From NCBI GenBank assembly GCA_016178595.1, contig JACOSY010000016.1, positions 38,151 through 102,150 on the forward strand: a DNA stretch of 64,000 nucleotides. The letters are read 5' to 3'. The notes beneath the pieces are model-generated. The model searched no databases and was not told the DNA's origin. It saw nothing but the letters and a program-made list of their open reading frames with translations. Below are positions 4,302 through 19,071 of the stretch, in pieces. The translations under genes and the position numbers were made by a program. Position 1 is the first letter of the stretch. Each line of letters opens with the position of its first letter. Source of the DNA: Ignavibacteria bacterium. Its GTDB lineage: Bacteria > Bacteroidota > Ignavibacteria > UBA10030 > SZUA-254.

Positions 4302-6362
4302 TCACCAATTCAACACGGGAAAGAGCGACGTGTAATCGTCCGTCCACACCGGCACGGTAATAGTCGTCTGCCGGTCGGGGAAAACTGCTTCTTGAACTGC
4401 TCGCTGCTGAAGCAATGTCGTGTTCAGCGTTAACACGATCCACTCGGACGGAAACCGGCGGATGTCGCGCTCCTGGTTGAAATCGGTCAATACAATCATT
4501 GGAAGCTTTAACTCCTTCGCGACCGCAGCAACCACGGCGTGAAGGTTCACCTGTTTGCTGGAGATGTTGACGAGGATTGCGCCGTCCGGCTTGATGTGCT
4601 TCAGGAAAATTTCGAACGCTTCCCTGGTCAACAAATGCACGGGAGGAGAATCGCTGTTGAATGCATCCAGCACGAGCACGTCGAAATTCTGCGGCGGCTC
4701 CTTCTCCATCGAGAGGCGCGCATCGCCGATGACGATGTCGTTCCGTGCCAGGCAATCGGCAAGATAGGTGAAATGCTTCTCCGCCAACTGCTGCACCTGC
4801 GGGTTGATTTCGTAGAAGCGAAAATAGTCTCCGGGCCTGCCATACGCTGCGAGCGTTCCCACTCCCAGCCCCACCACACCGACACGGTGCGCGCTATCTC
4901 CCGGTAAGCTTGTCAGAACTCGTCCGGCTCCGCCTTTCGCAGTGAAATACGACGTGGGCATACGATGGTACTGCGGGTTGATAAACTGATACCCATGCAG
5001 CGTTTTCCCGTGCCGCATGACAAGGAACTGTCGATCACGATCGTTCTCATTATACGACGTGATCGCGAGCGTACTGAAAAAATTTCGTGCCGTATCCACC
5101 GTGTTATGATAGATAATGCGTGTCTGCTGGTAGAAAAGAATTGCAAAGATTGCCACTCCGGCTGCAAGGCCTGCCCATGCCCAGCGAGGTTTTCCGCGAC
5201 GCAACGGACTCGTCTCATCGACAAAGAACATCAGCAGGACAACACCGCAGCATGCAAGGATCGCGCATTGAAACTCATAATATCCGCTGAACAACACCGG
5301 CGCAAGAAACGTTACGAACATTCCGCCCATAGCGCCGCCAGCTGCAATCGACAAGTAATAGGAGGTAAGATGCGATGGCGGCGGTTTCAGTCGCGCGACC
5401 TCGCCATGACAAATCATGCAGCCGATGAATACAAGGCATGAATAGATTGCAAGCTGCGGCAGAAATGTCAACGTTTCTTCATTGAACATCATCCAGCACA
5501 CGATTGAGATAGCGACAAGGTATGCAATCGCGTATGTCGGGCGCGAGTACCACCGCGGGTGATCGAATGTGAGGACGAATGTGAGAAGATAGATGGCCAG
5601 CGGCAGCACCCAGAGCAACGGCATCGGCACAACTTCCTGGCAGAGCTTATTCGTTGTTGAGAGCAGCAGCACCGATGCGATCGCCGGCAGCGTTATCCAC
5701 AACGCACGATCGAGCAACGGCACAGCGACGACTTCTTGTTTTTCATCGTCCGGCGTCCGGGGACCCGGAAGAACCGAAGCCTTGCGCCAAAGGTAGACAG
5801 CACTCGCGACACACACGACGACGAACACCATCATCCCCCACGACCATACTTCCGCTTGCGCCCGGCGCGCGATGTTCGGCTCGACCACAAAGGGATATGC
5901 GATCAGTGCAAGCAGAGAGCCGACGTTCGATAACGCATAGAGTCGGTACGGAACTGTCGCAGGGGAAAGCATACTCAGCCAGCGCTGAAGCAGCGGACCG
6001 GTGGTCGCAAGAACAAAGTACGGAATGCCGAGCGAAACAAAGAGCAGCGTCAGGATGCGAATCGTCGGGTCGACGTTCGATGTGGGTTTCCATTGATCTC
6101 CGGGAATGATCGGCAAGAGCACGAGTGCGAGAAGAAGAATCAGAACGTGCAGAATAATCTGCTGGCGTGGACGAAGATATCGTGTGATCAGATGACTGTA
6201 GGCATATCCGAACAGAAGAAACGTTTGGAAGAACACGATGCAGGTTGTCCACACCGCTGCACTGCCGCCGAACCACGGCAGGATGTATTTGCTGATGATC
6301 GGCTGAACAAGGAAGAGGAGAAACGCGCTGAGAACAATTGTTATGGAATAGAGGATACGCAT
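4302..6362 (-). CDS. Fused polytopic membrane domain / spermidine-synthase-like aminopropyltransferase
   Basis: The N-terminal half has about 10 TM helices. The C-terminus has a spermidine synthase fold with GVVGLGVGTLA and DVLVLDAFNSD...PDGILVNI motifs. The start was chosen at MRILY (6362) because the upstream ATG at 6383 lies inside a hairpin. Confidence 0.7.
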   Translation of the reverse strand: MRILYSITIVLSAFLLFLVQPIISKYILPWFGGSAAVWTTCIVFFQTFLLFGYAYSHLITRYLRPRQQIILHVLILLLALVLLPIIPGDQWKPTSNVDPTIRILTLLFVSLGIPYFVLATTGPLLQRWLSMLSPATVPYRLYALSNVGSLLALIAYPFVVEPNIARRAQAEVWSWGMMVFVVVCVASAVYLWRKASVLPGPRTPDDEKQEVVAVPLLDRALWITLPAIASVLLLSTTNKLCQEVVPMPLLWVLPLAIYLLTFVLTFDHPRWYSRPTYAIAYLVAISIVCWMMFNEETLTFLPQLAIYSCLVFIGCMICHGEVARLKPPPSHLTSYYLSIAAGGAMGGMFVTFLAPVLFSGYYEFQCAILACCGVVLLMFFVDETSPLRRGKPRWAWAGLAAGVAIFAILFYQQTRIIYHNTVDTARNFFSTLAITSYNENDRDRQFLVMRHGKTLHGYQFINPQYHRMPTSYFTAKGGAGRVLTSLPGDSAHRVGVVGLGVGTLAAYGRPGDYFRFYEINPQVQQLAEKHFTYLADCLARNDIVIGDARLSMEKEPPQNFDVLVLDAFNSDSPPVHLLTREAFEIFLKHIKPDGAILVNISSKQVNLHAVVAAVAKELKLPMIVLTDFNQERDIRRFPSEWIVLTLNTTLLQQRAVQEAVFPDRQTTITVPVWTDDYTSLFPVLNW

Positions 6363-6378
6363 ATGACAACCAAGATGT

Positions 6379-6407
6379 GCCACGCATTATGAAAGTGCGT
6401 GGCACGT
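6379..6407 (-). terminator. Hairpin immediately downstream of the MIPS stop (GTGCCACGCA-loop-TGCGTGGCAC)
   Basis: A perfect 10-bp stem is seen. No clear T-run follows on the minus strand, so terminator function is uncertain. Confidence 0.3.
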
Positions 6408-6412
6408 CAAGG

Positions 6413-7732
6413 CTAATCGTAATACTCAAGTCCCAGGTGCGTGATCAGCTCTTCGCCCTTCATGTGGCGCAACGTGTTCTTCAACTTCATGAGCTGGATG
6501 AAGAGATCGTGCTCGGGGTAGAGACCCGGCGCAAACATCGGGCTCTTGAAGTAAAACGAAAGCCATTCCTGAATTCCTTTCATGCCGGCACGTTGAGCGA
6601 GATCCATAAAGAGCACGAGATCGAGCACGATGGGTGCGGCGAGGATCGAGTCGCGGCAGAGGAAGTTGATCTTCACCTGCATCGGGTAACCCATCCATCC
6701 GAAGATATCGATATTATCCCAGCTTTCCTTGTTGTCGCCGCGCGGAGGATAATAATTGATGCGGACCTTGTGATAGTAATTCTTGTAGAGTTCGGGATAT
6801 AATTCCGGCTGGAGAATTCCTTCCAGCACGGAGAGCTTGCTTTCTTCTTTTGTTTTGAACGACTCCGGATCGTCCAGCACTTCGCCGTCGCGGTTGCCGA
6901 GAATGTTGCTCGAGAACCAGCCGCTCAGTCCGATGAGGCGCGCTTTCAGCATCGGCGCGATGACGGTCTTGACAAGCGTCTGCCCTGTCTTGAAATCTTT
7001 TCCGGCAATGGGCAAACCCGTTTGCTTTGCAAGCTCCATCAGCGCCGGCGTATCGACCGTGAGGTTCGGTGCTCCGTTGGCGAACGGCACGCCTTCTTTC
7101 AGCGCGGCGTAGGCATAGAGCATGCTCGGTGCAATATCGGGGTGATTCTTTTTCATTGCGTCTTCGAGCTTCTTGACATTCTTATGTACGTTATTCGGAC
7201 TGATGAACACTTCCGTGCTGCCGCACCAGATCAGCACACACCGATCGAGCTTGTTAGCGGTCTTAAATGTACGGATGTCTTCGCGCAACATTTCCATCAA
7301 TTCAAACTTGGTTTTCCCTTTCTTCACGTGCTTCCCGCTGAGGCGCTTCACATAGAACTGGTCGAAGACGGCTTTCATCGGATGAACGGCCTGCAACTCT
7401 TTCTTAATGCTGTCGAGGTGAGTTCTCTCGAGAACGCCGGCTTCGCAAGCAGACGCGTAGCAATCCTCGTTGCGAATATCCCATCCGCCGAACACGAGAT
7501 CATCGAGCTTTGCGAGTGGAATGAAATTTTTGATGAGGGGCGAGCGATGCTCGGTGCGTTTGCCGAGACGGATCGTTCCCATTTGTGTGAGTGACCCGAT
7601 CGGCATGGCAAGACCTTTGCGCACCGCCATAACGCCGGCAAGAAACGTCGTAGAGACGGCGCCGTTCAGTCCGACGATGAGCACTCCGAGTTTTCCTTTT
7701 GGCTTTGTAATGGTGTGAGTAGTCTTCTTCAT
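6413..7732 (-). CDS. ino1: myo-Inositol-1-phosphate synthase (MIPS)
   Basis: NAD-binding GLNGAVSTT is present. SSNILGNRDG matches the conserved SYNHLGNNDG block of MIPS. Length is about 440 aa, with the start taken at MKKTTH. Confidence 0.8.
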   Translation of the reverse strand: MKKTTHTITKPKGKLGVLIVGLNGAVSTTFLAGVMAVRKGLAMPIGSLTQMGTIRLGKRTEHRSPLIKNFIPLAKLDDLVFGGWDIRNEDCYASACEAGVLERTHLDSIKKELQAVHPMKAVFDQFYVKRLSGKHVKKGKTKFELMEMLREDIRTFKTANKLDRCVLIWCGSTEVFISPNNVHKNVKKLEDAMKKNHPDIAPSMLYAYAALKEGVPFANGAPNLTVDTPALMELAKQTGLPIAGKDFKTGQTLVKTVIAPMLKARLIGLSGWFSSNILGNRDGEVLDDPESFKTKEESKLSVLEGILQPELYPELYKNYYHKVRINYYPPRGDNKESWDNIDIFGWMGYPMQVKINFLCRDSILAAPIVLDLVLFMDLAQRAGMKGIQEWLSFYFKSPMFAPGLYPEHDLFIQLMKLKNTLRHMKGEELITHLGLEYYD

Positions 7733-7795: not shown

Positions 7796-8476
7796 TTAGA
7801 ATAGAATTTTCCGAATCTCTTCAAAATGTTCAATGCTAAAATCCGTAGCCGGTGTTTCGGTCGGATGTGCAGTCCAGCTCTTCCCTTTCAGCCAGATCGT
7901 CGTGCAGCCGAGCTGTTTTCCCGGGACAATATCGCGCTCGTACGAATCGCCGACGACGTATGCTTCTTGTGCAGCGATAGCAAGCCGGTCAAGCGCCAAT
8001 TGGAAAATTGCCGGATCGGGCTTTCGGATGCCGACGACAACCGAATCGATCATCGTATCGAAGTATCGATCCAAACTAAACTCTTTGCAGACAATTTCCA
8101 AATTGCCATAGAAGTTCGAAACAAGTCCGAGCTTGTATGCGCCGTGAAGATCATTCAGGAGATTTCGTGCGCCGGCAATGGTCTTTCCCACGTCGGCATA
8201 GCACGCATTAATGATCCGCATGAGAACTTCATGTCGCTCACTGAACCCGAGTATTGCGAATTGCAGCGTGAACTGCTTCACGAGCGTTGCGTAGAATGTC
8301 GCACTCGAAAGCGATGAATCTTCTCCAAGCTCTTCTTCCGAGCGAACGAAGACGCGCGCGAAGTCTTTCTTTGCCACGGGAAGCTTGAAACGCTCGTAAT
8401 ATTCCCAGAATTTTTCGCTCCAATGCACGCCATCGGTGTCGATCGTTCCGCCGAAATCAAAGAGGACTGCGTTCAT
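7796..8476 (-). CDS. HAD-superfamily hydrolase (candidate inositol-phosphate / phosphatidylinositol-phosphate phosphatase)
   Basis: The N-terminal DFGGT motif (HAD motif I with the nucleophile Asp) and a C-terminal GDSxxD are present. It sits between MIPS and the dehydrogenase. Confidence 0.75.
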   Translation of the reverse strand: MNAVLFDFGGTIDTDGVHWSEKFWEYYERFKLPVAKKDFARVFVRSEEELGEDSSLSSATFYATLVKQFTLQFAILGFSERHEVLMRIINACYADVGKTIAGARNLLNDLHGAYKLGLVSNFYGNLEIVCKEFSLDRYFDTMIDSVVVGIRKPDPAIFQLALDRLAIAAQEAYVVGDSYERDIVPGKQLGCTTIWLKGKSWTAHPTETPATDFSIEHFEEIRKILF

Positions 8477-8510
8477 CGTATCATCAAGATCATGATTTGT
8501 TTCTTCGACT

Positions 8511-8646
8511 CACCTCTCCCTAACCCTCTTCCTTCGCTACGCTCAGGACAAGCTCTACGAGGAGAGGGGATGCAGGCTTTGCAATTGCCTGGCATCGCAG
8601 TCAAAACATCCTCTCCTAGTAGGAGAGGATTATAGGTGAGGTGGGT
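8511..8646. repeat. Diverged palindromic MITE-like element (CACCTCTCC ... CCTCTCCTAGTAGGAGAGG ... AGGTGAGGTGGG)
   Basis: It has terminal inverted segments and an internal perfect palindrome. It lies between HAD 5'-end copies 1 and 2. Confidence 0.45.
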
Positions 8647-8724
8647 TTGCGTCAGCATAATACTCCCGAAGTCGAATAAGACAGCTTTCATCGGTCATCG
8701 TCTGACATTGTCAGTTCTTTCCTC

Positions 8725-8794
8725 CGACCCTCTCCTCTGTCACTGCGTGACATCCCCTCTCCCAAATTGGGAGAGGGGAACGAGGGGTGAGGGT
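8725..8794. repeat. Palindromic element, family 1 (CCCTCTCC-TGTCAC-N3-GTGACA-TCCCCTCTCCC-AAAT-TGGGAGAGGGG ... GGGTGAGGGT)
   Basis: The same architecture recurs at 10820-10886 and 19092-19192. Confidence 0.6.
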
Positions 8795-8827
8795 CAACGC
8801 TACCGCCGAAGTCGAGGAGGATTGCGT

Positions 8828-9841
8828 TCATACAAGATCGAGAACTGCTTTCTCCTCCGATGACCGGTAACTCGCATCCAACAACTTCATCACCATGAAT
8901 GCTTCATCCAACAGGTCGGTGGCCATGTTCTTTTGTTCGATCCGGCAAATGAATTCCTGAAACAGCGCCGCATACCAGGCAACGTATTGACTCTTATCGG
9001 AAACATCCGGCATCGGGATTTCTCGCGTCTCCTCTCCATCAGTGTGGAGCAGGTGTACACCGTCGTAGGAAAGACTTCCTTTCTCTCCGGCAACGTACAC
9101 GCTGTTCGCGCGCTGGTTTGCCGCCCACGTGAGGTTGATCTGCATGAGTGTGTCCGGATATTCGAGCGTGACGATTGCCGTGTCTTCAACCCCATAGTCC
9201 GTATGCTTCAGCGTCCGAAGGATTGCAGAGATTTTCTGTGGGATTCCAAAGAAGTATTGCGCAAGATAGAAATAATGCGCGCCGGTATCGACAAGAATCC
9301 CGCCGCCGCTGTGACTCTTGCTCGTCCGCCACTGCGGATTCCAATTTGCCGTTCCGGTATCGGCATGAAGCCGGTACACGTTGAATTGCGCGAGCGCGAC
9401 CTTGCCGAGCTTCCCTGACGCGATAACATCCCGGATCGATTTCCAGAGCGGTGAGTACTTGTATTGATGGCACGGCACAAACACGATTCCTGCTTTCTTC
9501 ACGGCATCGGCAAGCTCTCTTGCAGTAGAATATTTTTCCACCAAGGGTTTCTCGCACACAACATGAATACCTTTCGCTGCACAGGCTTTGATGTATTCTG
9601 CATGGGTGTACGGCGGCGTGCAGATATCGACAAAATCGGGCTTCTCGTTTTCAAGGAGTGTATTGATCGACGTATAAAAAGTTGCTCCCGGAAACACTTC
9701 GTTCGCCTTCGTACGACTTTGCTCTACCACGTCCATGACGGCAACGATACGTGCTTTCGACTTCACGCCTTCGGACTGATATGCCGGAACATGACCGCGC
9801 AGCGCGATGTTGCCAAGACCGATTAACGCGCCACGCAGCAT
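8828..9841 (-). CDS. Gfo/Idh/MocA-family NAD(P) oxidoreductase (inositol 2-dehydrogenase-like)
   Basis: An N-terminal Rossmann GLGNIALRGHVPAY is followed by EKP (CEKPL) and a GGG...D C-terminal domain. The start overlaps the upstream stop (TAATG). Confidence 0.8.
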   Translation of the reverse strand: MLRGALIGLGNIALRGHVPAYQSEGVKSKARIVAVMDVVEQSRTKANEVFPGATFYTSINTLLENEKPDFVDICTPPYTHAEYIKACAAKGIHVVCEKPLVEKYSTARELADAVKKAGIVFVPCHQYKYSPLWKSIRDVIASGKLGKVALAQFNVYRLHADTGTANWNPQWRTSKSHSGGGILVDTGAHYFYLAQYFFGIPQKISAILRTLKHTDYGVEDTAIVTLEYPDTLMQINLTWAANQRANSVYVAGEKGSLSYDGVHLLHTDGEETREIPMPDVSDKSQYVAWYAALFQEFICRIEQKNMATDLLDEAFMVMKLLDASYRSSEEKAVLDLV

Positions 9842-10812
9842 TACGCAACCACCTTCTGCTCATCCACCATCTCGATCAGTCGAGCGCTCAACTGTTCCTG
9901 ATGCATCGTCACGAGAATCATGACAAGGTTAATGCCGACAATCTCCGTGACGAAATACACCGGCACGACATCCGCAAGCACGCAGATTGACATGACGATC
10001 ATTCGCGTGTTCGTTGTCAGCGCGGCATAATACTTCATGAGCGGCTTGTTCAAACGACGGTACTCGTCGGAGAACCACGAGGGAATATTTGTTCCGAACT
10101 CCTGCTCGACTCGTTTCCGCAGCGTCTGAAAAGTTTTTGAGAGCGCTTCTTGTTGAACCGTGTAGTTCAAGTAGACGCGGAGAAGAATCTTCTTCAAAGG
10201 ATTCCTCGCGAAGGATGTCGACCGGTATTCGGAGCGAACTTGATCGGATTGGTCAAGCTCGGACTTGGTCGGATCGACGACAAATTTCAAGTATGCATTC
10301 CTGTAGTAATCGGCGAGCGAGCTTTGGAGGGAATGGCTGATGCCTCCTGCAAGTGTGAGCACAAGCAGTAACGGCCAGGCTACGTTCGGATATGTTTCGA
10401 CCATGCGTGCAAAGAGGTGCAGATAGATGCTGAGGAACATGATGTTCCCGCCGAGACCGTCGAGAATGCGGCCAATCTTCGATCGGTGGTTCGTCATGCG
10501 GGCAAGCTGCCCATCGACACTGTCAAGCGTATCGGCGATGATCCAGAGTGCGATTCCCCAGACATTGGTAAGGAAGTCTCTATAATAGAGCAAATGCCCG
10601 CCGGCGACGCCGATGAAGATGCTAACGATGGTGACGACGTTCGGCGTAATGCCAAGCGACTGACACGCCCGTGCGATCCAGAACCCGAGCGGACGGTAGA
10701 AGTAGATATCGATCGTCTCTTCGACGTCGCGGGCTTTGTACGTGGATTCGATTGCGGGTGTGGTAAATGTGTTCATCTCAATGTATTTTTCTGTTGCCGT
10801 AAACTTAGCCAT
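9841..10812 (-). CDS. CDP-alcohol phosphatidyltransferase family protein (PIP synthase / DIPP synthase-like)
   Basis: DTLDSVDGQLARMTNHRSKIGRILDGLGGN matches the D-G-x2-A-R-x8-G-x3-D-x3-D signature. There are multiple TM helices. Confidence 0.75.
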   Translation of the reverse strand: MAKFTATEKYIEMNTFTTPAIESTYKARDVEETIDIYFYRPLGFWIARACQSLGITPNVVTIVSIFIGVAGGHLLYYRDFLTNVWGIALWIIADTLDSVDGQLARMTNHRSKIGRILDGLGGNIMFLSIYLHLFARMVETYPNVAWPLLLVLTLAGGISHSLQSSLADYYRNAYLKFVVDPTKSELDQSDQVRSEYRSTSFARNPLKKILLRVYLNYTVQQEALSKTFQTLRKRVEQEFGTNIPSWFSDEYRRLNKPLMKYYAALTTNTRMIVMSICVLADVVPVYFVTEIVGINLVMILVTMHQEQLSARLIEMVDEQKVVA

Positions 10813-10819: not shown

Positions 10820-10886
10820 CTACCCTCTCCCTGTCACTTCGTGACATCCCTCTCCCAGATTGGGAGAGGGATCATAGGGTGAGGGT
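10820..10886. repeat. Palindromic element, family 1
   Basis: The sequence is CCCTCTCCCTGTCACTTCGTGACATCCCTCTCCCAGATTGGGAGAGGGATCATAGGGTGAGGGT. It lies between the aminotransferase stop and the transferase start. Confidence 0.6.
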
Positions 10887-12223
10887 TACATTTTCTGTGC
10901 TAATACTCCGAATGCCTGATCCATGATGTCAATCCCCTCTTCCGCAGTCGCTTCGTCGATGACGAGCGGGGGATTGATGCGGATGTCCGGACTGTAGCTC
11001 ATTGTGATGAGGCCTCGTTTCAGGCACTCGAAGAAAACCATCTTGCACGTTTCTTTGTCGAGTTTCTCCTTCGTGCCGGGCTTCACGAGCTCAACGCCGA
11101 TAAGGAGCCCTTTGCCCCGCACTTCACCGATGAACGGATATTTTTCTTTGAGCTTCATGAACTTACTCAACATGAACGCTCCAACCTTGCGAGAGTTTTC
11201 CACCAGTCCGTCTTCAACGATGGTCTTCACCGTAACGTAGGCTGCCGCTGAGGCGAGTGGATTCCCGCCGTAGCTCGAGGAGCTGCCGCTTGGGTTTGCG
11301 AACGGCTTCGAGAAAATAATTTCATCGCGCGACATGAGTCCGGTCATCGGATAACCGCCGCCAAAACTCTTACCGATCGTGATAATATCGGGAACGATAT
11401 TATCATGCTGGCAAGCGAAAAGTTTTCCGGTACGACCGAATCCTGTGATCATCTCGTCGCAGATCAAGAGCGCACCGATCTCTTTGGTCAGCTTACGAAG
11501 CTCAATCAAGTATCCTTCCGGCGGCACCACGTTGCCGTTGGTTCCCTGTATCGGCTCGACGATGATCGCCGCGAGGTTGCCGGTCGTCTCCGTCTTGATC
11601 TTTTCGCGAATGAAATCCACGCACGCCCAGTTGCACTCGGGGAAGGTGAGGTGCAGCGGACAGCGGCGGCAATTCGCGTACGGCGTATTGTAAATGCCGA
11701 ATGGCAACGGACCGAGCTGCTGCTTGAACGTATCGCCGATGAGTCCGACCACACCGAGCGTTTTTCCGTGGAAGCCGCCCCAGAAACCCATGACTTCGGT
11801 TTTCTTTGTGTAGGATTTTGCGAGCCGCAGTGCCGCTTCGACCGCTTCCGCGCCGCCACTATAATATTGCGTGCGATAAAGGTCGCCCACGGCGTTTTCG
11901 GCAAGCATCTTCGAAAGCTCGGCGCGTACTTTCGTGGTGAACGACCCGACGTGGATCTTCGCCACCTGTTCTTGCATCATCTTCACGTACTTCGGATGAT
12001 TGTAGCCGAGGCTCGAAACCGCAACGCCGGCAAAGAAGTCGATGTAACGGTTGCCATCGACATCCTCGATGATACAGCCCTCGCCTTTCTCGACAACGAT
12101 CTGCGACAGCGTGGCAATCGTCTGTGTGCCAGGAGAAATATATTTCTGTTCGAGGTCGAATATCTCCTTCGACTTCGGCCCGGGGATGGCGGTTTTGATG
12201 GAGGATTTTTTCTTGTGCGTCAT
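10886..12223 (-). CDS. Class-III (ornithine/GABA-type) PLP-dependent aminotransferase
   Basis: The DEMITGFGRTGK PLP-lysine region and a GG...HG glycine-rich block are present. The start was reassigned to MTHKKK (12223) because the upstream ORF extension overlaps the neighbouring gene. Confidence 0.8.
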   Translation of the reverse strand: MTHKKKSSIKTAIPGPKSKEIFDLEQKYISPGTQTIATLSQIVVEKGEGCIIEDVDGNRYIDFFAGVAVSSLGYNHPKYVKMMQEQVAKIHVGSFTTKVRAELSKMLAENAVGDLYRTQYYSGGAEAVEAALRLAKSYTKKTEVMGFWGGFHGKTLGVVGLIGDTFKQQLGPLPFGIYNTPYANCRRCPLHLTFPECNWACVDFIREKIKTETTGNLAAIIVEPIQGTNGNVVPPEGYLIELRKLTKEIGALLICDEMITGFGRTGKLFACQHDNIVPDIITIGKSFGGGYPMTGLMSRDEIIFSKPFANPSGSSSSYGGNPLASAAAYVTVKTIVEDGLVENSRKVGAFMLSKFMKLKEKYPFIGEVRGKGLLIGVELVKPGTKEKLDKETCKMVFFECLKRGLITMSYSPDIRINPPLVIDEATAEEGIDIMDQAFGVLAQKM

Positions 12224-12230
12224 AGTATCA

Positions 12231-13052
12231 CTAATCAACATGTGAATGTGCCTTTCTGTAAATAAGCTGTGCAATATGCTTACTTGCCTGCTCGCGCACG
12301 GGGGCAAAGCTCGGCCAGTCATTGATATCGATGATCGTGACGCTACCATCCCTTCCGATGATCGCGTCTCCACCGTACACATACAAGTTGAGCGCATCGG
12401 CGGAAGCCAGGGCAAGCTCGCGGAGCTTTTTCTCGTCGAATGGCGTGTGGTATACGCCGTTCAAGTAATACCAGTGGAAGAGATCGGTTTCACGCACTGC
12501 GTAAAATTTCACCGTGTCGCCGTCAAGATGTTCCTGCAAGATGGCTTGCTTGATGTCGCGCGCATGAAATTCCTTCAGGAGTGTCATCTCCTCATCGTCC
12601 GTGCTTGCGAGCGTTACATCTTCTTTATGAACGGCATGGACGTCTCCACGCTTGATCCAGATCTTCGATGTTGTGAAGCCGGCTTGCCGCGGGTTGATGT
12701 CGGAATCTGTCGCAACGATGACGCTTTTAGGGAACGGAATTCCTGCTTGCGGCAACATCTTTACCATGTTAATCCGGTAACAGTTCATTACCGCCCGCGG
12801 GGAGTTGATGATGGATGCGCCGCGCTGCTCGATCGTCAGAAGTGTGTTGGAACCGATCGGGCCTTGCGCCATGGAGAAAATCAGTTTCTCTTTAACATCG
12901 TCCGGCGTGACAACGCCTTCATCGTGCATCGTCACTTCAGCACCGAGCTTTTTCAATTCATCAGCCGTCTGGTTGATGATGAGAAGATCGTTCACGACAT
13001 GGTTCGGCGAAAATTCCGTCTTCCGCCGAATGCCTGCAAAATGGAGTTTCAT
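12231..13052 (-). CDS. ATP-grasp fold protein (possible ligase or inositol-phosphate-kinase-like enzyme)
   Basis: The C-terminal IIDINDWP looks like a DxN Mg-binding motif. The overall length and spacing fit an ATP-grasp fold. The family assignment is tentative. Confidence 0.4.
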   Translation of the reverse strand: MKLHFAGIRRKTEFSPNHVVNDLLIINQTADELKKLGAEVTMHDEGVVTPDDVKEKLIFSMAQGPIGSNTLLTIEQRGASIINSPRAVMNCYRINMVKMLPQAGIPFPKSVIVATDSDINPRQAGFTTSKIWIKRGDVHAVHKEDVTLASTDDEEMTLLKEFHARDIKQAILQEHLDGDTVKFYAVRETDLFHWYYLNGVYHTPFDEKKLRELALASADALNLYVYGGDAIIGRDGSVTIIDINDWPSFAPVREQASKHIAQLIYRKAHSHVD

Positions 13053-13690
13053 GAAAAGAGTTTCGACAAGAATGATGGTGGATCGTCGGGCGGCTGCGGC
13101 ATACCCAGAGCAATTTCCCGGTCACGGCGGATGATCGCCTGTGTATCGATTTCCCGTTGAAGACGGTAGTCGACAAGGATTGTTCCGACAACAAACCCGA
13201 TCAAGTTAGCAAAAAACACGACGTGCAGGGCAATGTGAAATCCCCGAACGCCGAAGAGCACCGTCGCAAGGTAGCCGAAGTAGATCATGAACCGTTTGAA
13301 GCCGGGATCGAACTTCGAGAGCGGCTCTATTATAGTCACGAGCAGAATAGCGACGAATGCCAGAACGGCCATGAAATACGTCACTTGCCCGATGTACGCA
13401 AGCGCGAGGAAGATCGCAAGCTCGCTCAGTCGGTCATAAATAACTTCGAGCATTTGCCCCTTCTCGGATTGCAAATTGTAGCGACGAGCGACACCGCCAT
13501 CGAGTCCGTCGATGACTTGCGCGATGGCAAGCAGGACCAATCCGTGAACGAGCGAGCCGGTTGCAACAACGGTGGCCGCCATCATTCCAACAATAAAGCC
13601 GATCGTTGAAATCGTATTCGGCATGAGACCGAGTGTCTCGTGCACGAAACGGATGGGAAAACTCAGTATGTTGTCACTGGTCGAAGGCAT
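13049..13690 (-). CDS. CDP-alcohol phosphatidyltransferase family protein (second copy)
   Basis: The DGLDGGVARR...G...D signature is present in a 213-aa membrane protein. It overlaps the downstream gene by ATGA. Confidence 0.7.
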   Translation of the reverse strand: MPSTSDNILSFPIRFVHETLGLMPNTISTIGFIVGMMAATVVATGSLVHGLVLLAIAQVIDGLDGGVARRYNLQSEKGQMLEVIYDRLSELAIFLALAYIGQVTYFMAVLAFVAILLVTIIEPLSKFDPGFKRFMIYFGYLATVLFGVRGFHIALHVVFFANLIGFVVGTILVDYRLQREIDTQAIIRRDREIALGMPQPPDDPPSFLSKLFS

Positions 13691-13863: not shown

Positions 13864-14325
13864 TTAGAGATGAAACTGTAACACTCGACCTTTCGCAACT
13901 GCGACCACGAGGATCAACACCACGCACACCACGCACGTCCAAATTTCTTTCGATGTATCGGAATATTTCCGTAACATTCCTTCCGTCGAGTATGTGCTGA
14001 AGGGATAGAACGGCCGCTTCTCGTAGCTCACCATGTAATCCAGCATGAAGTGAGAGATGAAAAAGAGCGCCGGCACGTACGTTCCCAGGTACACCGAGAG
14101 CGGAATAATCCACGCGAGTGCAATCGGCTCTTGCAGCGGTGTTCGCCAATGATAATGTGTCTCATTCTTTTTGCCATTCTTCTTCAAATACAATGGAAGC
14201 TTGATAGGATGATCGATAAGATCGATGCCGTAGCCGAATGCATAGGCAAGGACGATATCCTTTCCTTCAAGCCCGAGAACTTGAACTCCAAGCGTGGTCA
14301 CGAGAAGATGTGGTACGATGGTCAC
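13864..14325 (-). CDS. Hypothetical membrane protein
   Basis: 153 aa with 3-4 TM helices and conserved His residues. An alternative overlapping ORF is at 13796-14149. Confidence 0.35.
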   Translation of the reverse strand: MTIVPHLLVTTLGVQVLGLEGKDIVLAYAFGYGIDLIDHPIKLPLYLKKNGKKNETHYHWRTPLQEPIALAWIIPLSVYLGTYVPALFFISHFMLDYMVSYEKRPFYPFSTYSTEGMLRKYSDTSKEIWTCVVCVVLILVVAVAKGRVLQFHL

Positions 14326-14586: not shown

Positions 14587-15603
14587 CTACAATGGAATTT
14601 GTTCTGCAGCTGTCTCCGGCTCAGGGCGTTTCCGCGTCGCGAGTGGAATAAAGAGAAGCCCGATCAGTATCCACACAAACTCCCGGATGCGCATCACCAC
14701 GCCGAGGTAAATTCCAAGGAGCGGCGTTATCGCCAGACTCCCCAATCCCAGGTAAAGCCCGCCTTCGCGCGCGCCGAGGTTCAATGGAATAAAGAACAGC
14801 AGGTTAATAACAATGGAATAGACTACGTAGAGAAATATGGCGGCAACAAGGCCGGTTTCCACTCCCACGCCGCGCAGGATCAAGTACACCTCGAATGCCA
14901 TGCACACACGGCTCATGTACTCAAGCAAAATGGCAGCAGAGAATTTTTTCCGATCCTTGTGGTAGACTTCGGTGAGGGCGGTATCCATCTCCACCAAACT
15001 CTCCGTGTATTTCCCGAGCAGGCGGGCAAGCGGCCGAAGAATCCGCAGTCTGTTGACAACGCGCTGCATCGGCGTGAAGACGCCTTGCCGGTGGCCGAGC
15101 AGCGTCAGCAGGACAACTGCACTGATAACAATTGCTGAGACGATCAACGCGCCGCTGACTGCGAGAGGAAGGGAAAGAACGAGAAGAGCGACGAGTAATC
15201 CGGTCAGAAGGAATAGCATGTGTCCCAGGAGGTGCACCATGCGATAGAGAACAACTGCCGAGAGCGAGCGCTGCGTGCCGAGTTCGCCCGAAAGCGCTTT
15301 CACTTTGTATGGCTCACCGCCGAGTGCAAGGAACGGCGTGATATAGTTGATGACAAATCCCGAGACCGTCACCATAAAGAGCTGCGCGAAGGTAATCCGC
15401 CTCCCCGATTCACCGAGGACGAGCTTCCAGGCAAGCGTATTCAAAAGATAGACGATGAGCCAGACGAGAACAATGTAGAGAAGACTCCATCCTGCCCGCT
15501 CGATGTTCTGAAGGATCCGATCGACTCCGAACCGGGACACCAGATAGGCAAATACTCCCGCTCCGAAGAGAAAAAAAGCGATGTTGAACCGGCGGCTTTT
15601 CAT
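14587..15603 (-). CDS. Lysylphosphatidylglycerol-synthase (MprF) TM-domain-like flippase family protein
   Basis: It has about 8 TM helices, and the topology and length match the UPF0104 flippase-like family. Confidence 0.6.
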   Translation of the reverse strand: MKSRRFNIAFFLFGAGVFAYLVSRFGVDRILQNIERAGWSLLYIVLVWLIVYLLNTLAWKLVLGESGRRITFAQLFMVTVSGFVINYITPFLALGGEPYKVKALSGELGTQRSLSAVVLYRMVHLLGHMLFLLTGLLVALLVLSLPLAVSGALIVSAIVISAVVLLTLLGHRQGVFTPMQRVVNRLRILRPLARLLGKYTESLVEMDTALTEVYHKDRKKFSAAILLEYMSRVCMAFEVYLILRGVGVETGLVAAIFLYVVYSIVINLLFFIPLNLGAREGGLYLGLGSLAITPLLGIYLGVVMRIREFVWILIGLLFIPLATRKRPEPETAAEQIPL

Positions 15604-15608: not shown

Positions 15609-16571
15609 CTAAAATACCGATATCTTAACGTAGCGCTCGGGATGCTCGCGCAGATCGACGAGCAGGAGATTCAAATCCTTCATCATGCCAATGAGCTGGC
15701 GATAGAAATTGCCATCGCTGACGAGCTTCGAGACACTGCTCGTATCAGCCGACGCCTTCGCCATGAGAGAATCCGCCCGCGCAGAGAATGAGGAGAGACT
15801 CGTATAGAGCCGGTCATCCATGATCAGCTTGCCCATCGTTCCCTTGCCTTGCCGGATTTGGTCGGTGACATTCTTGAGATTGGAGGAAACATCGGAGATA
15901 TTGCGCCCGAACGATTCATCATAAATAAACTTTCCAAGAGCGCCGCGCTTCTCCTCGACGGCAGCCATGAGACCGTTCAGCGAGCGGAGGAAGCGTTCCA
16001 TCTCATTGGCAATAGTTGGCTGTTTGATTAAGCGCCCGATCGAGCCTTCTCCGCGATCCATCGTAGCTGCAATATGCTTGGCGCTCTTGAGAAGCTCGGT
16101 GAAATCCGCGAGCGCAGTTCTGAACTGCGGCCCTGCCATTTCGATATCGAACGATTCGATGATCGGGATATACGAATTCTCAACCAGCGGCGGCTCGTCC
16201 CGGCTGCCGATCGTCAAATCGATATACTTGTCGCCGAGGAGGCCGATGGTTTTGATTTGCGCAAAGGTGCTCGTCGTGATGGTCGATCTGTATTTGGTCA
16301 ATAAGTCTGCGGTAATGTCGACGCCGTTGACACTGTCGCGTGTCGCGAAGCGCATATCCCTGACGTATCCAACCTTCAACCCGCCAAGCGATATCATGGC
16401 GCCGTTCACGAGGCCATGGACGTTGGTAAGGAAGAACTTCAACTGGTACGTCGACGCGAACACATTCTGTTCGGTCCCGACAATACTCACGATGAACACG
16501 AAGACAACGAGACCGACCAGAACAACGAGACCGACTTTGAGGCTCGACCACTTCATTTGGGTTTGATTCAT
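15609..16571 (-). CDS. mlaD: MlaD/MCE-domain phospholipid ABC transporter substrate-binding protein
   Basis: An N-terminal TM anchor is followed by an MCE domain (LKVGYV...GLLGDKYIDL). Confidence 0.75.
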   Translation of the reverse strand: MNQTQMKWSSLKVGLVVLVGLVVFVFIVSIVGTEQNVFASTYQLKFFLTNVHGLVNGAMISLGGLKVGYVRDMRFATRDSVNGVDITADLLTKYRSTITTSTFAQIKTIGLLGDKYIDLTIGSRDEPPLVENSYIPIIESFDIEMAGPQFRTALADFTELLKSAKHIAATMDRGEGSIGRLIKQPTIANEMERFLRSLNGLMAAVEEKRGALGKFIYDESFGRNISDVSSNLKNVTDQIRQGKGTMGKLIMDDRLYTSLSSFSARADSLMAKASADTSSVSKLVSDGNFYRQLIGMMKDLNLLLVDLREHPERYVKISVF

Positions 16572-16583
16572 GGAGCTCCGCCG

Positions 16584-17339
16584 TTATTGGTTGGCAAAGA
16601 GTAAACTTGCTTCTTCACGAATTTCGGAGAGAAATTCTTGCACGAACGTGTCTTTCGACGCAAGGATATCGTGTGCATTCCCATCGAAAACGATGCGGCC
16701 ATCACTGACGACGGCGAGCGAGTCGCCGACGGCAAACGCATCGCGCAGAATATGTGTCACGACGATGGAAGTGACCCTGCGTTCATTCTTCAGTTTCAAC
16801 ATCAGCTCGGTCACCGTCTTGGCATTGATCGGATCGAGGCCCGTTGTCGGTTCATCGTAGAGAATGATTTCGGGATGGAAGGCGATCGCTCTCGCAATTG
16901 CGACACGTTTCTTCATCCCTCCGCTAATTTCCTCCGGCAACAGACTGCCGGCATCCGGAAGGTTGACGAACTCAAGACACTCTTGTACGCGCTTGTCGAT
17001 TTGCTCCGGCGTCATGGGGGAATGTTCTTCAAGAAAAAATCCGACGTTCTCCGCAACCGTCAATGAATCGAACAACGCGTTCCCCTGGAAGATCATCGAC
17101 ATGCGCCGGCGAACCGGCATTTGTTCGCGTTCACTCAAGCGGGTAATCTCAATATCGTCGACAAATACCTTGCCGACATCCGGCTTCCACAAACCCAGGA
17201 CAACTTTCAGGAGCGAACTCTTCCCTGCGCCGCTCGGGCCGAGCATGACCTTTGTTTCGCCATCATTCACACGGAAGGATACGTCGTCGAGGATCTTTCG
17301 TTCTTCAAATTCGACTGTTATATTTTCCAAACGAATCAT
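16584..17339 (-). CDS. mlaF: Phospholipid ABC transporter ATP-binding protein MlaF
   Basis: Walker A GPSGAGKSS, the ABC signature LSGGMKKRVAIARA and Walker B ILYDEPTTGLD are present. Confidence 0.85.
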   Translation of the reverse strand: MIRLENITVEFEERKILDDVSFRVNDGETKVMLGPSGAGKSSLLKVVLGLWKPDVGKVFVDDIEITRLSEREQMPVRRRMSMIFQGNALFDSLTVAENVGFFLEEHSPMTPEQIDKRVQECLEFVNLPDAGSLLPEEISGGMKKRVAIARAIAFHPEIILYDEPTTGLDPINAKTVTELMLKLKNERRVTSIVVTHILRDAFAVGDSLAVVSDGRIVFDGNAHDILASKDTFVQEFLSEIREEASLLFANQ

Positions 17340-17384
17340 GATGTTGACTCTTATAATCCTTGTCACGAGGCCGGTTTTTCATTG

Positions 17385-17523
17385 CCACGAGCTTCAGCTC
17401 GTGGATAGCATCTCCAAAAACCTCGAGGGGTTTCAACCTCTAATCAGCCAGCGTTTTTTTGATGGCTAAAGCCCCACTCGCCCTTGACTCTTCCGTCCAC
17501 GACCTAAAGGTCGTGGCAATCGG
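17385..17523. repeat. Family-2 multi-hairpin element (CCACGAGCTTCAGCTCGTGG ... GGGTTTCAACC ... GGCTAAAGCCCC ... CCACGACCTAAAGGTCGTGGCAATCGG)
   Basis: It is the reverse-complement copy of the element at 20903-21050. It is intercistronic between mlaF and mlaE. Confidence 0.6.
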
Positions 17524-17559
17524 ACTGTTCGCTCATCAGGGAATTCCTTCACATCCATT

Positions 17560-18345
17560 CTATAGTATCGACCAGATCACTTTCGTAAAAATGAAATCAT
17601 TGAAGAGCACAACCACCGATGAGACCACGACAGCGTTGACCGCCGCACGTCCTACGCCAATTGTCCCTCCTGTCGTCGCTAATCCGTAATAACAACTTAT
17701 GGTCGAGATGAAGAATGAGAAAACGACCGGCTTGGCAAATCCGACAATCAGGTCTTTTATCTTAAGATCGTAGATTGCCGAGTGCCAGAAAAAACCTTTG
17801 TCGACGTTCAGCCACCAATCGGAAACATACATCCCTCCGACGAGTCCAACGAGATCGGAAACCAGCGTGAGAGGCAGAAACATGACGAGCGCTGCGATAA
17901 GGCGCGGCACGGCGAGTTTCTCGATCGGATCCGTTCCGAATGCCCGCAGCGCGTCGATCTGTTCGCTTACTTGCATGGAGCCTAGCTCAGAGGCGTTCTT
18001 CGCACCGGTGCGCGCCGCAAGGAGCAAGCCGGTGATGACGGGACCGAGCTCGCGGAAGAGCGCAAGCGACGTCGTACGTCCGACAAGGAGCTTCGCGCCG
18101 AACGTCTCGAGTCTGTGCCCCGCCTCGATGGCCATGATGATTCCCATGAACAGACCCGAAAGCGACGCGATCATAAACGCCTGCGCGCCGATGATGTACA
18201 TTTGCTCGAGCGTATCGCGCCGGTAGCGCCACGCGGAGCGCAGCGATCGGACGTTCTCGTAGACGAAGATCGAGTACTCTTGCAGCCGCCAGAGCATGCG
18301 CTTGAACGTTCGGACGGGGGCGATATCGGCAGCGGGCCATGCCAT
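17560..18345 (-). CDS. mlaE: Phospholipid ABC transporter permease MlaE
   Basis: It has a MlaE-type polytopic permease topology and sits adjacent to mlaF and mlaD. Confidence 0.8.
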   Translation of the reverse strand: MAWPAADIAPVRTFKRMLWRLQEYSIFVYENVRSLRSAWRYRRDTLEQMYIIGAQAFMIASLSGLFMGIIMAIEAGHRLETFGAKLLVGRTTSLALFRELGPVITGLLLAARTGAKNASELGSMQVSEQIDALRAFGTDPIEKLAVPRLIAALVMFLPLTLVSDLVGLVGGMYVSDWWLNVDKGFFWHSAIYDLKIKDLIVGFAKPVVFSFFISTISCYYGLATTGGTIGVGRAAVNAVVVSSVVVLFNDFIFTKVIWSIL

Positions 18346-18348
18346 GCA

Positions 18349-19071
18349 CTATTTCGGATTCTCGTGAAGCCACTCTTCCGCCGTCCGGATATCCTGCACA
18401 TGATCGACATCCACGATTTTTGAGAATGGATATCCTTCCAGCGTGTAGCCGTTCTCCACGAGATGACTCAGGAAATTCCGCAGGCGCTCGATGTTACGAT
18501 TGAGGACGACATCGATTTCGTTAAAAATTCTTGGAGAGAAAACGTACATGCCGCCGGTGACCCACTCTTCCTTTTCCCCGCGCAGGGTGACATTTGTTTT
18601 TTTGGCAAAACGGAGAATCCGTTTCTGCGCGTCCATCTCTACATAGAGCGGGTTCTCATCATCGATAAAATTCGTGATTGCAAGAATTCCATCAAGCGAG
18701 GCTTTCCCTTGTGCGTACTGAAGATACCGGCAGAATTCTTCTTCATGAAATATCGAATCGACGGTTGAGAGAAGAAACTGTTCATCGCGCAGATGTGTAG
18801 CAAGAGCGAAGAGACTATGCATCGAGCTTGGCGTCGTCCTGACAACGAAGTCGATCGTGATCGGGAAATGTTTCTGTTCGATGAAGCGTTTCACCTCGAG
18901 AGAATATTCATTGACGATGCAGGCGATTTCGGTGATGCCGTTCCGGATGAACGTCGCGATCAATCGTTCGATGAGCGGAATGCCATTGACAGGGACGAGC
19001 GGCTTCGGCAGAGCGATGCCTTCCGATTTGAGCCGGCTTCCTTCCCCCGCTGCGATGATGGCTGCTTTCAT
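18349..19071 (-). CDS. Nucleotidyltransferase (NTP-transferase fold; inositol-phosphate cytidylyltransferase-like)
   Basis: The N-terminal AAGEGSRL...PKPLVPV motif is the sugar-phosphate nucleotidyltransferase G-x-G-x-R-L signature. Confidence 0.7.
   Translation of the reverse strand: MKAAIIAAGEGSRLKSEGIALPKPLVPVNGIPLIERLIATFIRNGITEIACIVNEYSLEVKRFIEQKHFPITIDFVVRTTPSSMHSLFALATHLRDEQFLLSTVDSIFHEEEFCRYLQYAQGKASLDGILAITNFIDDENPLYVEMDAQKRILRFAKKTNVTLRGEKEEWVTGGMYVFSPRIFNEIDVVLNRNIERLRNFLSHLVENGYTLEGYPFSKIVDVDHVQDIRTAEEWLHENPK

Follow-up and report, generated by a model that had tools for sequence, protein, structure and literature searches.

A putative Ignavibacteriota version of the Bacteroidales 'alternative' inositol-lipid operon with a possible amino-inositol head group

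[quoted passage not shown] To address this, we analyzed the locus within a 64,000-nucleotide stretch of contig JACOSY010000016.1 (hereafter, the window). Based on sequence comparisons, the operon may be the Ignavibacteriota counterpart of the 'alternative' (CDP-inositol, Kennedy-type) operon of Bacteroidales, with a head group that is probably amino-inositol (inosamine), a reading to which we give about an even chance.

Layout and conservation of the cluster

The genes are listed here in the order of transcription.

18349..19071, minus strand: NTP (probably cytidylyl) transferase, 240 aa, first gene of the operon (PF00483, E 7e-17)
17560..18345, minus strand: MlaE permease of an optional transport module (PF02405, 240 bits)
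16584..17339, minus strand: MlaF-type ABC ATPase (PF00005, E 1e-32); start ATG at 17339, ORF running to GTG at 17366, NCBI gene call of 251 aa
15609..16571, minus strand: MlaD-domain protein of 320 aa, extended at its C-terminus by a long helical region (PF02470, E 1.4e-12)
14587..15603, minus strand: MprF-type flippase-like membrane protein (PF03706, 109 bits; TIGR00374 above cut-off)
13864..14325, minus strand: YdjM/DUF457-like putative metal-dependent membrane hydrolase, 153 aa (PF04307, E 1.7e-4, below cut-off)
13049..13690, minus strand: small CDP-alcohol phosphotransferase, 213 aa (PF01066), with the complete acidic signature D..DG..AR-x8-G...E...D
12231..13052, minus strand: ATP-grasp enzyme, 273 aa, of an unnamed family; candidate cyclitol kinase and core partner of the NTP transferase
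10886..12241, minus strand: class-III (omega-type) PLP aminotransferase, Ignavibacteriota-specific insertion (PF00202, 324 bits)
9841..10812, minus strand: CDP-alcohol phosphotransferase, 323 aa, orthologue of the Bacteroidales alternative-cluster transferase, lacking the last acidic signature residue
8828..9841, minus strand: Gfo/Idh/MocA NAD(P) dehydrogenase, Ignavibacteriota-specific insertion (PF01408, PF22725, PF02894)
7796..8476, minus strand: HAD-IA phosphatase (PF00702 and PF13419; 35-38% identity to the Bacteroidales cluster HAD)
6413..7732, minus strand: MIPS (PF07994, 364 bits, and PF01658); start ATG at 7732, ORF running on to 7780
4302..6362, minus strand: fused membrane/spermidine-synthase-like protein, 693 aa, a neighbor outside the conserved unit

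Based on the window's open reading frames and Pfam, 13 co-directional genes run on the minus strand from 19071 to 6413. The first-pass annotation had placed all 14 open reading frames correctly in position and strand, and the families that it named were borne out by Pfam (NTP_transferase, MlaE, ABC ATPase for MlaF, MlaD, LPG_synthase_TM, two CDP-OH_P_transf proteins, Aminotran_3, GFO_IDH_MocA, HAD, and MIPS). The start/stop overlaps that it described are also present, namely ATGA at 13052-13049 and TAATG at 9843-9839, the latter joining the stop of the 323-aa transferase to the start of the dehydrogenase. When synteny was examined, the order from NTP transferase to MIPS was identical in 33 loci, each from another GTDB species (Ignavibacteriota/Bacteroidota), whereas no flanking gene was conserved in more than 12 of the 33. 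The arrangement of the cluster is thus not a product of chance. All hosts of the extended cluster are uncultured MAGs from soil and groundwater. The fourteenth gene, which had been counted as a member, does not belong to the conserved unit: its product passes the NCBIfam model for fused MFS/spermidine synthase (MFS_SpdSyn; 60.8 bits, cut-off 40), and a homologue adjoining the cluster is found in the source genome only and in none of the other loci.

MlaE, MlaF, and MlaD of the embedded transporter were likewise borne out by Pfam, but they are an optional insert rather than fixed members. In three species neither MlaFED nor the flippase-like gene is present in the cluster (for MlaE, the loci are L018, L026, and L031), and MlaB, MlaC, and MlaA have no gene within the cluster. 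The flippase-like protein is not a full MprF, since its 338 residues comprise the LPG_synthase_TM/flippase-like domain only, without the C-terminal aminoacyl-PG synthase domain. A minimal set occurs in two species (L028 and L036), which carry the NTP transferase, Mla, ATP-grasp, aminotransferase, one transferase, dehydrogenase, flippase-like, HAD, and MIPS genes and miss both the 213-aa transferase and the YdjM-like gene.

The core shared with Bacteroidales

As reported, a B. vulgatus/Prevotella-type 'alternative' inositol-lipid cluster has been associated with the ability of B. vulgatus and P. veroralis to make inositol lipids, although its pathway is unconfirmed (Heaver et al. 2022, PMC9246714). 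Six genes of the window are one-to-one homologues of this cluster in the same relative order, with 30-62% identity: those for the NTP transferase, the ATP-grasp, the 323-aa CDP-alcohol transferase, the MprF-type flippase-like protein, the HAD phosphatase, and MIPS. Compared with the Bacteroides sedimenti cluster, identities are 41% for the NTP transferase (over residues 1-231 of an NTP-transferase/ATP-grasp fusion), 42% for the CDP-alcohol transferase, 38% for HAD, and 62% for MIPS, and the flippase-like protein shares 30-32% with the equivalent Bacteroidales gene product. MIPS is clustered on one strand with an NTP-transferase-domain protein, a CDP-alcohol phosphatidyltransferase, and a HAD hydrolase, and an LPG-synthase-TM (BT_1521-like) gene lies near it. 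In contrast, the ATP-grasp and the NTP transferase are two separate genes in the window, whereas in Bacteroidales the 'NTP transferase' protein has the ATP-grasp as its C-terminal half, and the CarboxypepD_reg/DUF5686 neighbor of the Bacteroidales cluster does not occur in the window. Judged by the same comparison, the dehydrogenase and class-III aminotransferase, the second small transferase with the YdjM-like hydrolase, and MlaFED are Ignavibacteriota-specific additions. The dehydrogenase and aminotransferase are absent from five sampled Bacteroidales clusters, and we found no published description of an inositol-lipid cluster that carries them. The earlier view that the gene combination is not a described pathway therefore applies to this addition but not to the core, which was already published.

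The NTP transferase lies at about the same distance from archaeal GlmU, RmlA, and IPCT/DIPPS in NCBIfam, all far below cut-offs, and is not separable from RmlA/GlmU by HMM and PDB sequence scores alone. The CDP-inositol route proposed in the first-pass annotation is favored by homology to the Bacteroidales cluster and left undecided by these scores; what ties the NTP transferase to CDP-alcohol chemistry is a series of gene fusions. The forms found are NTPt-ATPgrasp, NTPt-ATPgrasp-CDP-OH PT, HAD-NTPt-ATPgrasp, and ATPgrasp-CDP-OH PT; Bacteroidales proteins join the ATP-grasp to the NTP transferase and sometimes also to the CDP-alcohol transferase, and an Elusimicrobia MAG protein holds HAD, NTP transferase, and ATP-grasp in one chain. 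These fusions associate the ATP-grasp with nucleotide activation and transfer, and fusions of kinases with nucleotidyltransferases occur in other pathways. Since the ATP-grasp is among the six shared homologues, it is part of that core, as the partner of the NTP transferase, and not of the "amination module" to which it had been assigned. The published cluster description mentions neither an ATP-grasp nor a kinase (PMC9246714).

Profile comparisons place the ATP-grasp near both kinases and ligases. It matches ITPK4 and ITPK1 at 1e-6 to 1e-4, hhalign aligns the family profile with human ITPK1 across 221 columns at a probability of 88%, and the window protein shares a DxN..PSF motif with AtITPK4. 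PF05770 (ITPK1) falls below the Pfam threshold for the window protein, reaches E 0.04 in 3 of 15 orthologues, and is precomputed, marked as faint, for several Bacteroidales homologues; ITPK1-family kinases are also longer, at about 320 aa. In fold searches, ligases score as well as ITPK kinases or better, the best PDB profile match being the ligase PsnB, and NCBIfam yields weak matches to RimK, LysX, and MptN. However, the metal site reads D-I-N where PsnB and RimK have E-x-N, and the score of 28.9 bits against a TIGR00768 cut-off of 143 does not identify a RimK/LysX-type ligase. RimK-type ligases have a glycine-rich loop, unlike the central loop of this protein, KRGDVHAVHKEDV. The ATP-grasp is therefore put forward as a candidate overlooked kinase-like enzyme with an ITPK-like D-x-N site in the core of the inositol-lipid pathway.

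The two transferases differ in their signatures. The CDP-alcohol phosphotransferase signature, D1xxD2GxxAR...GxxxD3xxxD4, has eight absolutely conserved residues, of which D4 acts as catalytic base (Clarke 2015). The 323-aa protein departs from this superfamily pattern, reading DSVDGQLAR-x8-GRILDGLGGN with an acid at neither +8 nor +9, and among 29 loci covering the region upstream of its gene, 24 lack the acid; the signature ends in N in the window, in contrast to D/E at +9 in Bacteroidales homologues and D at +8 in the L025 group. Its closest fold is that of IPCT/DIPPS, which uses CDP-inositol, as the top structural match and a likeness at the fold level only. The 213-aa protein keeps D1, D2, and D4, with E in place of D3; K132-R133 is invariant and R176 conserved, possible counterparts of the two inositol-phosphate-binding arginines of phosphatidylinositol-phosphate and archaetidylinositol-phosphate synthases. 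The YdjM-like gene, previously annotated as a membrane protein, which holds, and more exactly a YdjM/DUF457-like one, always occurs together with this transferase; its H6, D35xxD38-H39, H57xH59, and H91xxxD95 are conserved, and its orthologues are 72-92% identical. Since the presumed catalytic acid is gone from the 323-aa transferase of this genome, transfer may be performed or completed by the 213-aa transferase and its YdjM-like partner. Neither transferase is identified as a phosphatidylinositol-phosphate or archaetidylinositol-phosphate synthase, as scores against these NCBIfam equivalogs (cut-offs 170 and 180 bits, respectively) are 47 and 65 bits for the 213-aa protein, for which they are the best models, and 36 and 44 bits for the 323-aa protein.

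The inserted dehydrogenase and aminotransferase

The additions are interleaved with core genes, in the order ATP-grasp, aminotransferase, transferase, dehydrogenase, and both are kept in all 28-34 spanning loci, with identities of 71-86% for the aminotransferase and 31-72% for the dehydrogenase. The dehydrogenase, with its catalytic EKP and D...H motifs conserved, has inositol 2-dehydrogenase IolG as its best NCBIfam model (E 1e-27, below cut-off), while the nearest solved structures of the aminotransferase are GABA- and ornithine-type enzymes. In the scyllo-inosamine branch of aminocyclitol antibiotics and rhizopine, an inositol dehydrogenase is followed by an aminotransferase and then a kinase. 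This is the same order of chemistry on free inositol as proposed here, namely Gfo/Idh/MocA-type oxidation, transamination, and phosphorylation; in contrast, that branch employs non-ATP-grasp kinases and leads to secondary metabolites rather than lipid head groups, and the known inosose aminotransferases are of the DegT/StsC family, not class III. From families and gene order, the dehydrogenase and aminotransferase probably turn the inositol head group into amino-inositol.

Proposed route and competing explanations

In the proposed route, MIPS, whose family assignment is firm, would convert glucose-6-P to inositol phosphate, from which the HAD phosphatase may free inositol. The dehydrogenase would then oxidize a ring hydroxyl to a ketone and the aminotransferase convert it to an amine, as suggested by the enzyme families and by the position of both insertions in the operon. 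That the ITPK-like ATP-grasp phosphorylates the cyclitol is suggested by its fusions to other pathway enzymes and by its D-x-N site for metal; the NTP transferase would yield CDP-cyclitol, a CDP-alcohol phosphotransferase would place phospho-cyclitol on a lipid alcohol, and the flippase-like protein with MlaFED may move the lipid across or between membranes. To remove a phosphate and then add one again seems uneconomical, unless it ends up at another position or the route has to pass through free inositol.

The same pathway could run with the ATP-grasp as an amide ligase that joins a carboxylate or amino acid to the new amine, giving an N-acylated or aminoacylated inosamine lipid with MprF-type export. 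The ligase matches described above (PsnB, MptN, RimK, LysX) agree with this, the family of the flippase-like protein flips an aminoacylated lipid, and the product would be analogous to lysyl-phosphatidylglycerol; however, the D-x-N site and the loop depart from those of such ligases, and Bacteroidales clusters that fuse the ATP-grasp to the NTP transferase have no aminotransferase and therefore no amine to acylate, so that we consider this variant unlikely.

Ordinary inositol lipids, with the dehydrogenase and aminotransferase converting myo- to scyllo-inositol via inosose or serving co-transcribed amine metabolism, would suit the core, whose Bacteroidales homologue is a cluster tied to plain inositol lipids, a weakly IolG-like dehydrogenase, and an aminotransferase closest to GABA- and ornithine-type enzymes. 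The interleaving of both genes with the core, down to the TAATG overlap, and their retention in every spanning locus make this quite improbable. That the genes yield no membrane lipid but a soluble compatible solute like di-myo-inositol-phosphate, perhaps in aminated form, through an IPCT/DIPPS-like route and a phosphatase is in our view very improbable. The genes for di-myo-inositol-phosphate are indeed those for MIPS, a phosphatase, an NTP transferase, and a CDP-alcohol transferase, and DIPPS, whose bifunctional form tops the structural matches noted above, is a membrane protein with a soluble product. However, the flippase-like protein is conserved in the cluster, with MlaFED in most species, the homologous Bacteroidales cluster is linked to inositol lipids, and the hosts are not hyperthermophiles. 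The IPCT/DIPPS of hyperthermophiles (PDB 4mnd, 2xme) is a fused enzyme for a soluble osmolyte without amination or transport genes, whereas the window has unfused genes, with scores of 61, 42, and 32 bits against an NF041135 cut-off of 580.

For the preferred reading, a conversion of inositol into an amino-inositol lipid head group, two known systems offer comparison. The MIPS-IPCT-BEPIS operon of Rhodothermus marinus (Jorge, Borges and Santos 2015, as cited in PMC4587543 and PMC10667739) combines, as does the window, MIPS with a cytidylyltransferase and a CDP-alcohol transferase, and CDP-inositol donates the head group to a lipid alcohol; as described in those citing papers, it is without the ATP-grasp, phosphatase, dehydrogenase, aminotransferase, flippase, and Mla genes. 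The eukaryotic Kennedy pathway shares the logic of a kinase, CTP activation, and transfer to a lipid alcohol, three steps that lie on one polypeptide in the NTPt-ATPgrasp-CDP-OH PT fusion. In contrast, its choline/ethanolamine kinase has a protein-kinase-like fold, whereas the candidate here is an ATP-grasp, and the head-group precursor in the window is made de novo by MIPS.

We tentatively propose, as a possibility well short of an even chance, that the ATP-grasp is the missing bacterial cyclitol kinase, that with the HAD phosphatase, the NTP transferase, and the transferase of about 300 aa it forms a complete Kennedy-type pathway, and that the Ignavibacteriota pair directs this pathway to an inosamine phospholipid. 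If so, some Bacteroidales would have a complete Kennedy-type inositol-lipid pathway fused into one polypeptide, Ignavibacteriota would have added oxidation and transamination at the point where inositol is free, and the resulting phospholipid with an aminocyclitol (inosamine) head group would represent a lipid class not yet described.

Gene content and conserved extent of the operon

Fourteen consecutive open reading frames occupy positions 19071-4302 of the minus strand, and Pfam, NCBIfam and the ORF coordinates bear out the co-directional arrangement and the gene identities proposed in the first-pass annotation.

The 14 co-directional genes of the window (family assignment by Pfam and NCBIfam; the ATP-grasp protein is without a Pfam match)
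18349-19071, minus: NTP transferase
17560-18345, minus: MlaE
16584-17339, minus: MlaF-type ATPase
15609-16571, minus: MlaD
14587-15603, minus: LPG_synthase_TM flippase-like protein
13864-14325, minus: YdjM/DUF457-like membrane protein, 153 aa
13049-13690, minus: CDP-alcohol phosphotransferase, 213 aa
12231-13052, minus: ATP-grasp protein, 273 aa
10886-12241, minus: class-III aminotransferase
9841-10812, minus: CDP-alcohol phosphotransferase, 323 aa
8828-9841, minus: Gfo/Idh/MocA dehydrogenase
7796-8476, minus: HAD-IA phosphatase
6413-7732, minus: MIPS
4302-6362, minus: fused membrane/spermidine-synthase-like protein

Anchored on the ATP-grasp protein, a single scan of 185,579 species genomes yielded 33 loci, every one of them belonging to uncultured Ignavibacteriota or Bacteroidota. 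Based on tblastn with the 14 window proteins, gene order between NTP transferase and MIPS is preserved throughout the 33 loci, so that the cluster is syntenic in relatives. When all locus ORFs were clustered, no flanking gene was common to more than 12 loci, and the conserved unit therefore comprises 13 genes (19071-6413). The spermidine-synthase-like gene, previously counted as a member, adjoins the operon in the source genome only and is not syntenic in relatives by tblastn across the loci; it was thus removed from the operon.

Within this order, several modules vary. MlaFED and the flippase-like gene are absent from the operon in L018, L026 and L031, so that the NTP transferase directly precedes the YdjM-like gene; the embedded Mla transporter is thus present in most species but optional. 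In L025, L028, L029 and L036, the flippase-like gene is placed between the dehydrogenase and HAD genes. Moreover, the 213-aa transferase is missing from L028 and L036, as is the YdjM-like gene, and their tightly packed operon reads NTP transferase, MlaE, MlaF, MlaD, ATP-grasp, aminotransferase, transferase, dehydrogenase, flippase-like protein, HAD and MIPS. A NUDIX/NrtR-type regulator gene precedes this minimal operon in L028 (1900-2589), and a LytTR-type two-component pair follows it (13331-15141); neither was seen beside the cluster of the window, and both are possible operon regulators. L004 has a small, apparently unrelated ORF in the interval separating dehydrogenase from HAD (12255-12755), and a transposase-like gene lies downstream (16321-17463). 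Judging from this locus, the operon appears tolerant of insertions between genes.

The operon of the window also carries extra spacers. The MlaE-MlaF spacer of approximately 200 bp, which orthologous loci lack, holds two copies of the REP-like palindrome CCACGA(G/C)CTnnAG(G/C)TCGTGG, and further extra spacers lie at 8477-8827 and 14326-14586. REP-like hairpins, and no genes, occupy these spacers. The palindrome occurs four times in the window, where 0.02 copies are expected by chance.

Copies of the REP-like palindrome in the window
17385-17404
17497-17516
20911-20930
21031-21050

A sigma-70 promoter and terminator scan gave no excess over shuffled sequence, with a sigma-70 model ill-suited to this phylum. 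An Rfam scan of the whole window detected no riboswitch; its sole match, a tRNA-Leu (CAG) at 63756-63840, is the only RNA gene detected. Elsewhere in the window, a small defence island of lower GC (535-3548, plus strand) encodes a type II DNA methyltransferase together with a type II restriction enzyme (E 3e-77) and a protease of trypsin-like type that matches PDC-S45, a candidate system in PADLOC (E 1e-63). Very large BNR/Sortilin-repeat proteins are encoded at 41374-44688 (minus) and 45895-49518 (plus), and one of the two bears a C-terminal sorting domain for type IX secretion; the first gene contains a 53-nt direct repeat (79% identity) at 43819-43871 and 43960-44012.

A backbone shared with Bacteroidales and the probable role of its ATP-grasp protein

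Five Bacteroidales contexts share the order (CarbopepD_reg/DUF5686), NTP transferase-ATP-grasp(-transferase), CDP-OH transferase, LPG_synthase_TM, HAD and MIPS, with the LPG_synthase_TM gene lacking in one of the five (L043/L044). This order identifies the contexts as the alternative inositol-lipid cluster (B. vulgatus/Prevotella type) described by Heaver et al. 2022 (PMC9246714), who noted LPG-synthase and carboxypeptidase-regulatory-like genes nearby, proposed a CDP-inositol Kennedy-like route that is unconfirmed, and mention neither an ATP-grasp protein nor an inositol kinase. Identities between the window proteins and the Bacteroides sedimenti cluster are 41% for the NTP transferase, 36% for ATP-grasp (residues 237-512 of the fused protein), 42% for the 323-aa transferase, 30% for the flippase-like protein, 38% for HAD and 62% for MIPS. 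The gene order of L028 equals the Bacteroidales order with three insertions: Mla between NTP transferase and ATP-grasp, the aminotransferase between ATP-grasp and transferase, and the dehydrogenase between transferase and flippase-like gene. Neither the dehydrogenase nor the aminotransferase occurs in the five Bacteroidales contexts. The first-pass annotation had proposed an inositol-based head group reached through CDP activation by an undescribed gene combination. This reading is supported in part: the cluster probably serves such a head group and its amination genes are new, whereas the backbone has already been described, albeit as an unproven cluster. Our literature search on phospholipids with inosamine or aminocyclitol, on the lipids of Ignavibacteria and on the present set of genes found nothing relevant.

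The 'NTP transferase' of the alternative cluster has two domains, with ATP-grasp forming its C-terminal half (loci L037, L040, L042, L043 and L045; proteins P0399, P0468 and P0471), and in some genomes the CDP-alcohol transferase is a third fused domain. The ATP-grasp family is large and unnamed: when 1.84 billion representative proteins were searched with a profile, 351 clusters matched at E<=1e-30 and 774 matched at E<=1e-10. A Pfam scan of its members revealed the following fusions.

Fusion architectures of the ATP-grasp family
NTP_transferase-ATP-grasp: approximately 510-565 aa, many examples
NTP_transferase-ATP-grasp-CDP-OH_P_transf: 814-824 aa, Bacteroidales (e.g. MBO7226818.1)
HAD-NTP_transferase-ATP-grasp: 802 aa, Elusimicrobia MAG (MBI4055633.1)
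ATP-grasp-CDP-OH_P_transf: 700 aa

The triple fusion, used as a query, matched hundreds of Bacteroidales proteins, including those of Bacteroides sedimenti and Alloprevotella, whose annotation goes no further than 'NTP transferase domain-containing protein' or 'NDP-sugar synthase'; some of their 90%-identity clusters reach 769 members. ATP-grasp thus belongs to the backbone of the alternative cluster. Its earlier placement in an amination module, with LysX/LysJ-like logic, was dropped, as the Bacteroidales fusions and their gene contexts contradict it.

Two activities were weighed for this protein, and a cyclitol kinase is somewhat more likely than a carboxylate-amine ligase. Against a kinase, the weak NCBIfam matches are to RimK, LysX and MptN. 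A 90-sequence family profile matches PsnB (8e-8) and a RimK-like ligase (7e-5) as well as the inositol phosphate kinases AtITPK4 (1.4e-6), human ITPK1 (1.7e-4) and an Entamoeba ITPK (1.3e-3). At the second metal site, the family has D-x-N (IIDINDWPSF), with which AtITPK4 and human ITPK1 agree, while PsnB and RimK align with E-x-N; AtITPK4, with DLN..PSF, also shares the longer motif DxN..PSF with the family. Additionally, hhalign against human ITPK1 (ITPK1 sequence verified for its C-terminal part) gave 88% probability over 221 columns, and several Bacteroidales homologues have faint precomputed matches to PF05770. The fusions couple ATP-grasp to nucleotide-activation and transfer steps, and the Bacteroidales clusters offer no obvious substrate for carboxylate-amine ligation, which argues against a ligase. 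A histidine pair (KRGDVHAVHK) considered as a mirror of the ITPK1 loop was discarded, being kept neither in Bacteroidales and Elusimicrobia homologues nor in the 90-sequence alignment. HMM and PDB sequence scores were uninformative on NTP transferase specificity.

A kinase would complete a Kennedy-type series of kinase, cytidylyltransferase and phosphotransferase. It would also explain the soluble phosphatase in the core, by which the MIPS product would yield free inositol for re-phosphorylation, possibly at another ring position. An inositol kinase was sought in earlier work on Tannerella and mycobacteria and was not identified (PMC4587543); the ATP-grasp protein is a candidate for this missing enzyme.

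Putative amination genes and the two CDP-alcohol transferases

The dehydrogenase retains the EKP and D...H catalytic motifs; it matches the models for inositol 2-dehydrogenase and for pyranose/glycoside 3-dehydrogenases best, in each case with a score under the cut-off. The aminotransferase is of the class-III omega type, and its closest structures are of GABA and ornithine type. The standard route to amino-sugars and aminocyclitols oxidises a ring hydroxyl and then transaminates the product, and IolG-type enzymes act on free inositol, the intermediate implied by the phosphatase-plus-kinase core. Therefore, the most economical reading is that inositol would be converted to inosose and then inosamine ahead of phosphorylation and CDP activation, although amination may instead occur at the inositol-phosphate, CDP-inositol or lipid stage.

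The 323-aa transferase departs from the family signature. Bacteroidales homologues have GR(I/C)LDGxxG(D/E), with the final acid one position after the canonical GxxxDxxxD, and the L025/26/28/29/36 group has GR(I/V)LDGxGDN. In the window and 24 other loci, the motif is GR(I/V)LDGx(G/A)(G/T/S)N, and both positions lack an acid (near residues 97-123 of the gene at 9841-10812; also L004-L024 and L030-L034). According to Clarke et al. 2015, all eight residues of the signature are absolutely conserved, D4 serves as the catalytic base, and D93N almost abolishes MtPIPS activity. The acid-less protein is nonetheless strongly constrained (65-80% identity, more than 100 invariant columns), and it may be a non-catalytic partner, use another base or act on a different substrate. 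The 213-aa transferase has the full signature (E or D at D3, D4 kept) and accompanies it in 24 of the 24 loci reaching far enough upstream, and both loci without the 213-aa transferase keep the acid in the 323-aa protein, so each genome has at least one complete transferase. The nearest NCBIfam models of the 213-aa protein are archaetidylinositol-P and PIP synthases, and its acceptor region has invariant basic residues. It is invariably accompanied by the putative YdjM-like hydrolase; speculatively, this protein could be its phosphatase partner.

Predicted product and significance

We favour a membrane lipid as the product over a soluble osmolyte resembling DIP. The flippase-like protein belongs to the conserved core, in Bacteroidales too; MlaFED is embedded in most species; the carriers are of soil and groundwater origin; and inositol lipids have been linked to the homologous cluster of Bacteroidales (PMC9246714). 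These observations point to a lipid, but none amounts to proof.

Collectively, the operon predicts an amino-inositol phospholipid, and so offers microbiology and lipid geochemistry a defined head group and mass to seek in Ignavibacteriota, which are widespread in soils, sediments and groundwater and barely cultured. Moreover, the alternative pathway of abundant gut Bacteroidales (Phocaeicola and Prevotella) gains a likely phosphorylation step through an unrecognised ATP-grasp domain; Bacteroides is genetically tractable, and the inositol-kinase candidate is directly testable there. Two testable by-products thus emerge: a bacterial protein that is a candidate cyclitol kinase, and a naturally occurring transferase without the presumed catalytic acid. 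The loss of this acid, coinciding with a second, canonical transferase, constitutes a natural experiment on the mechanism of CDP-alcohol transferases.
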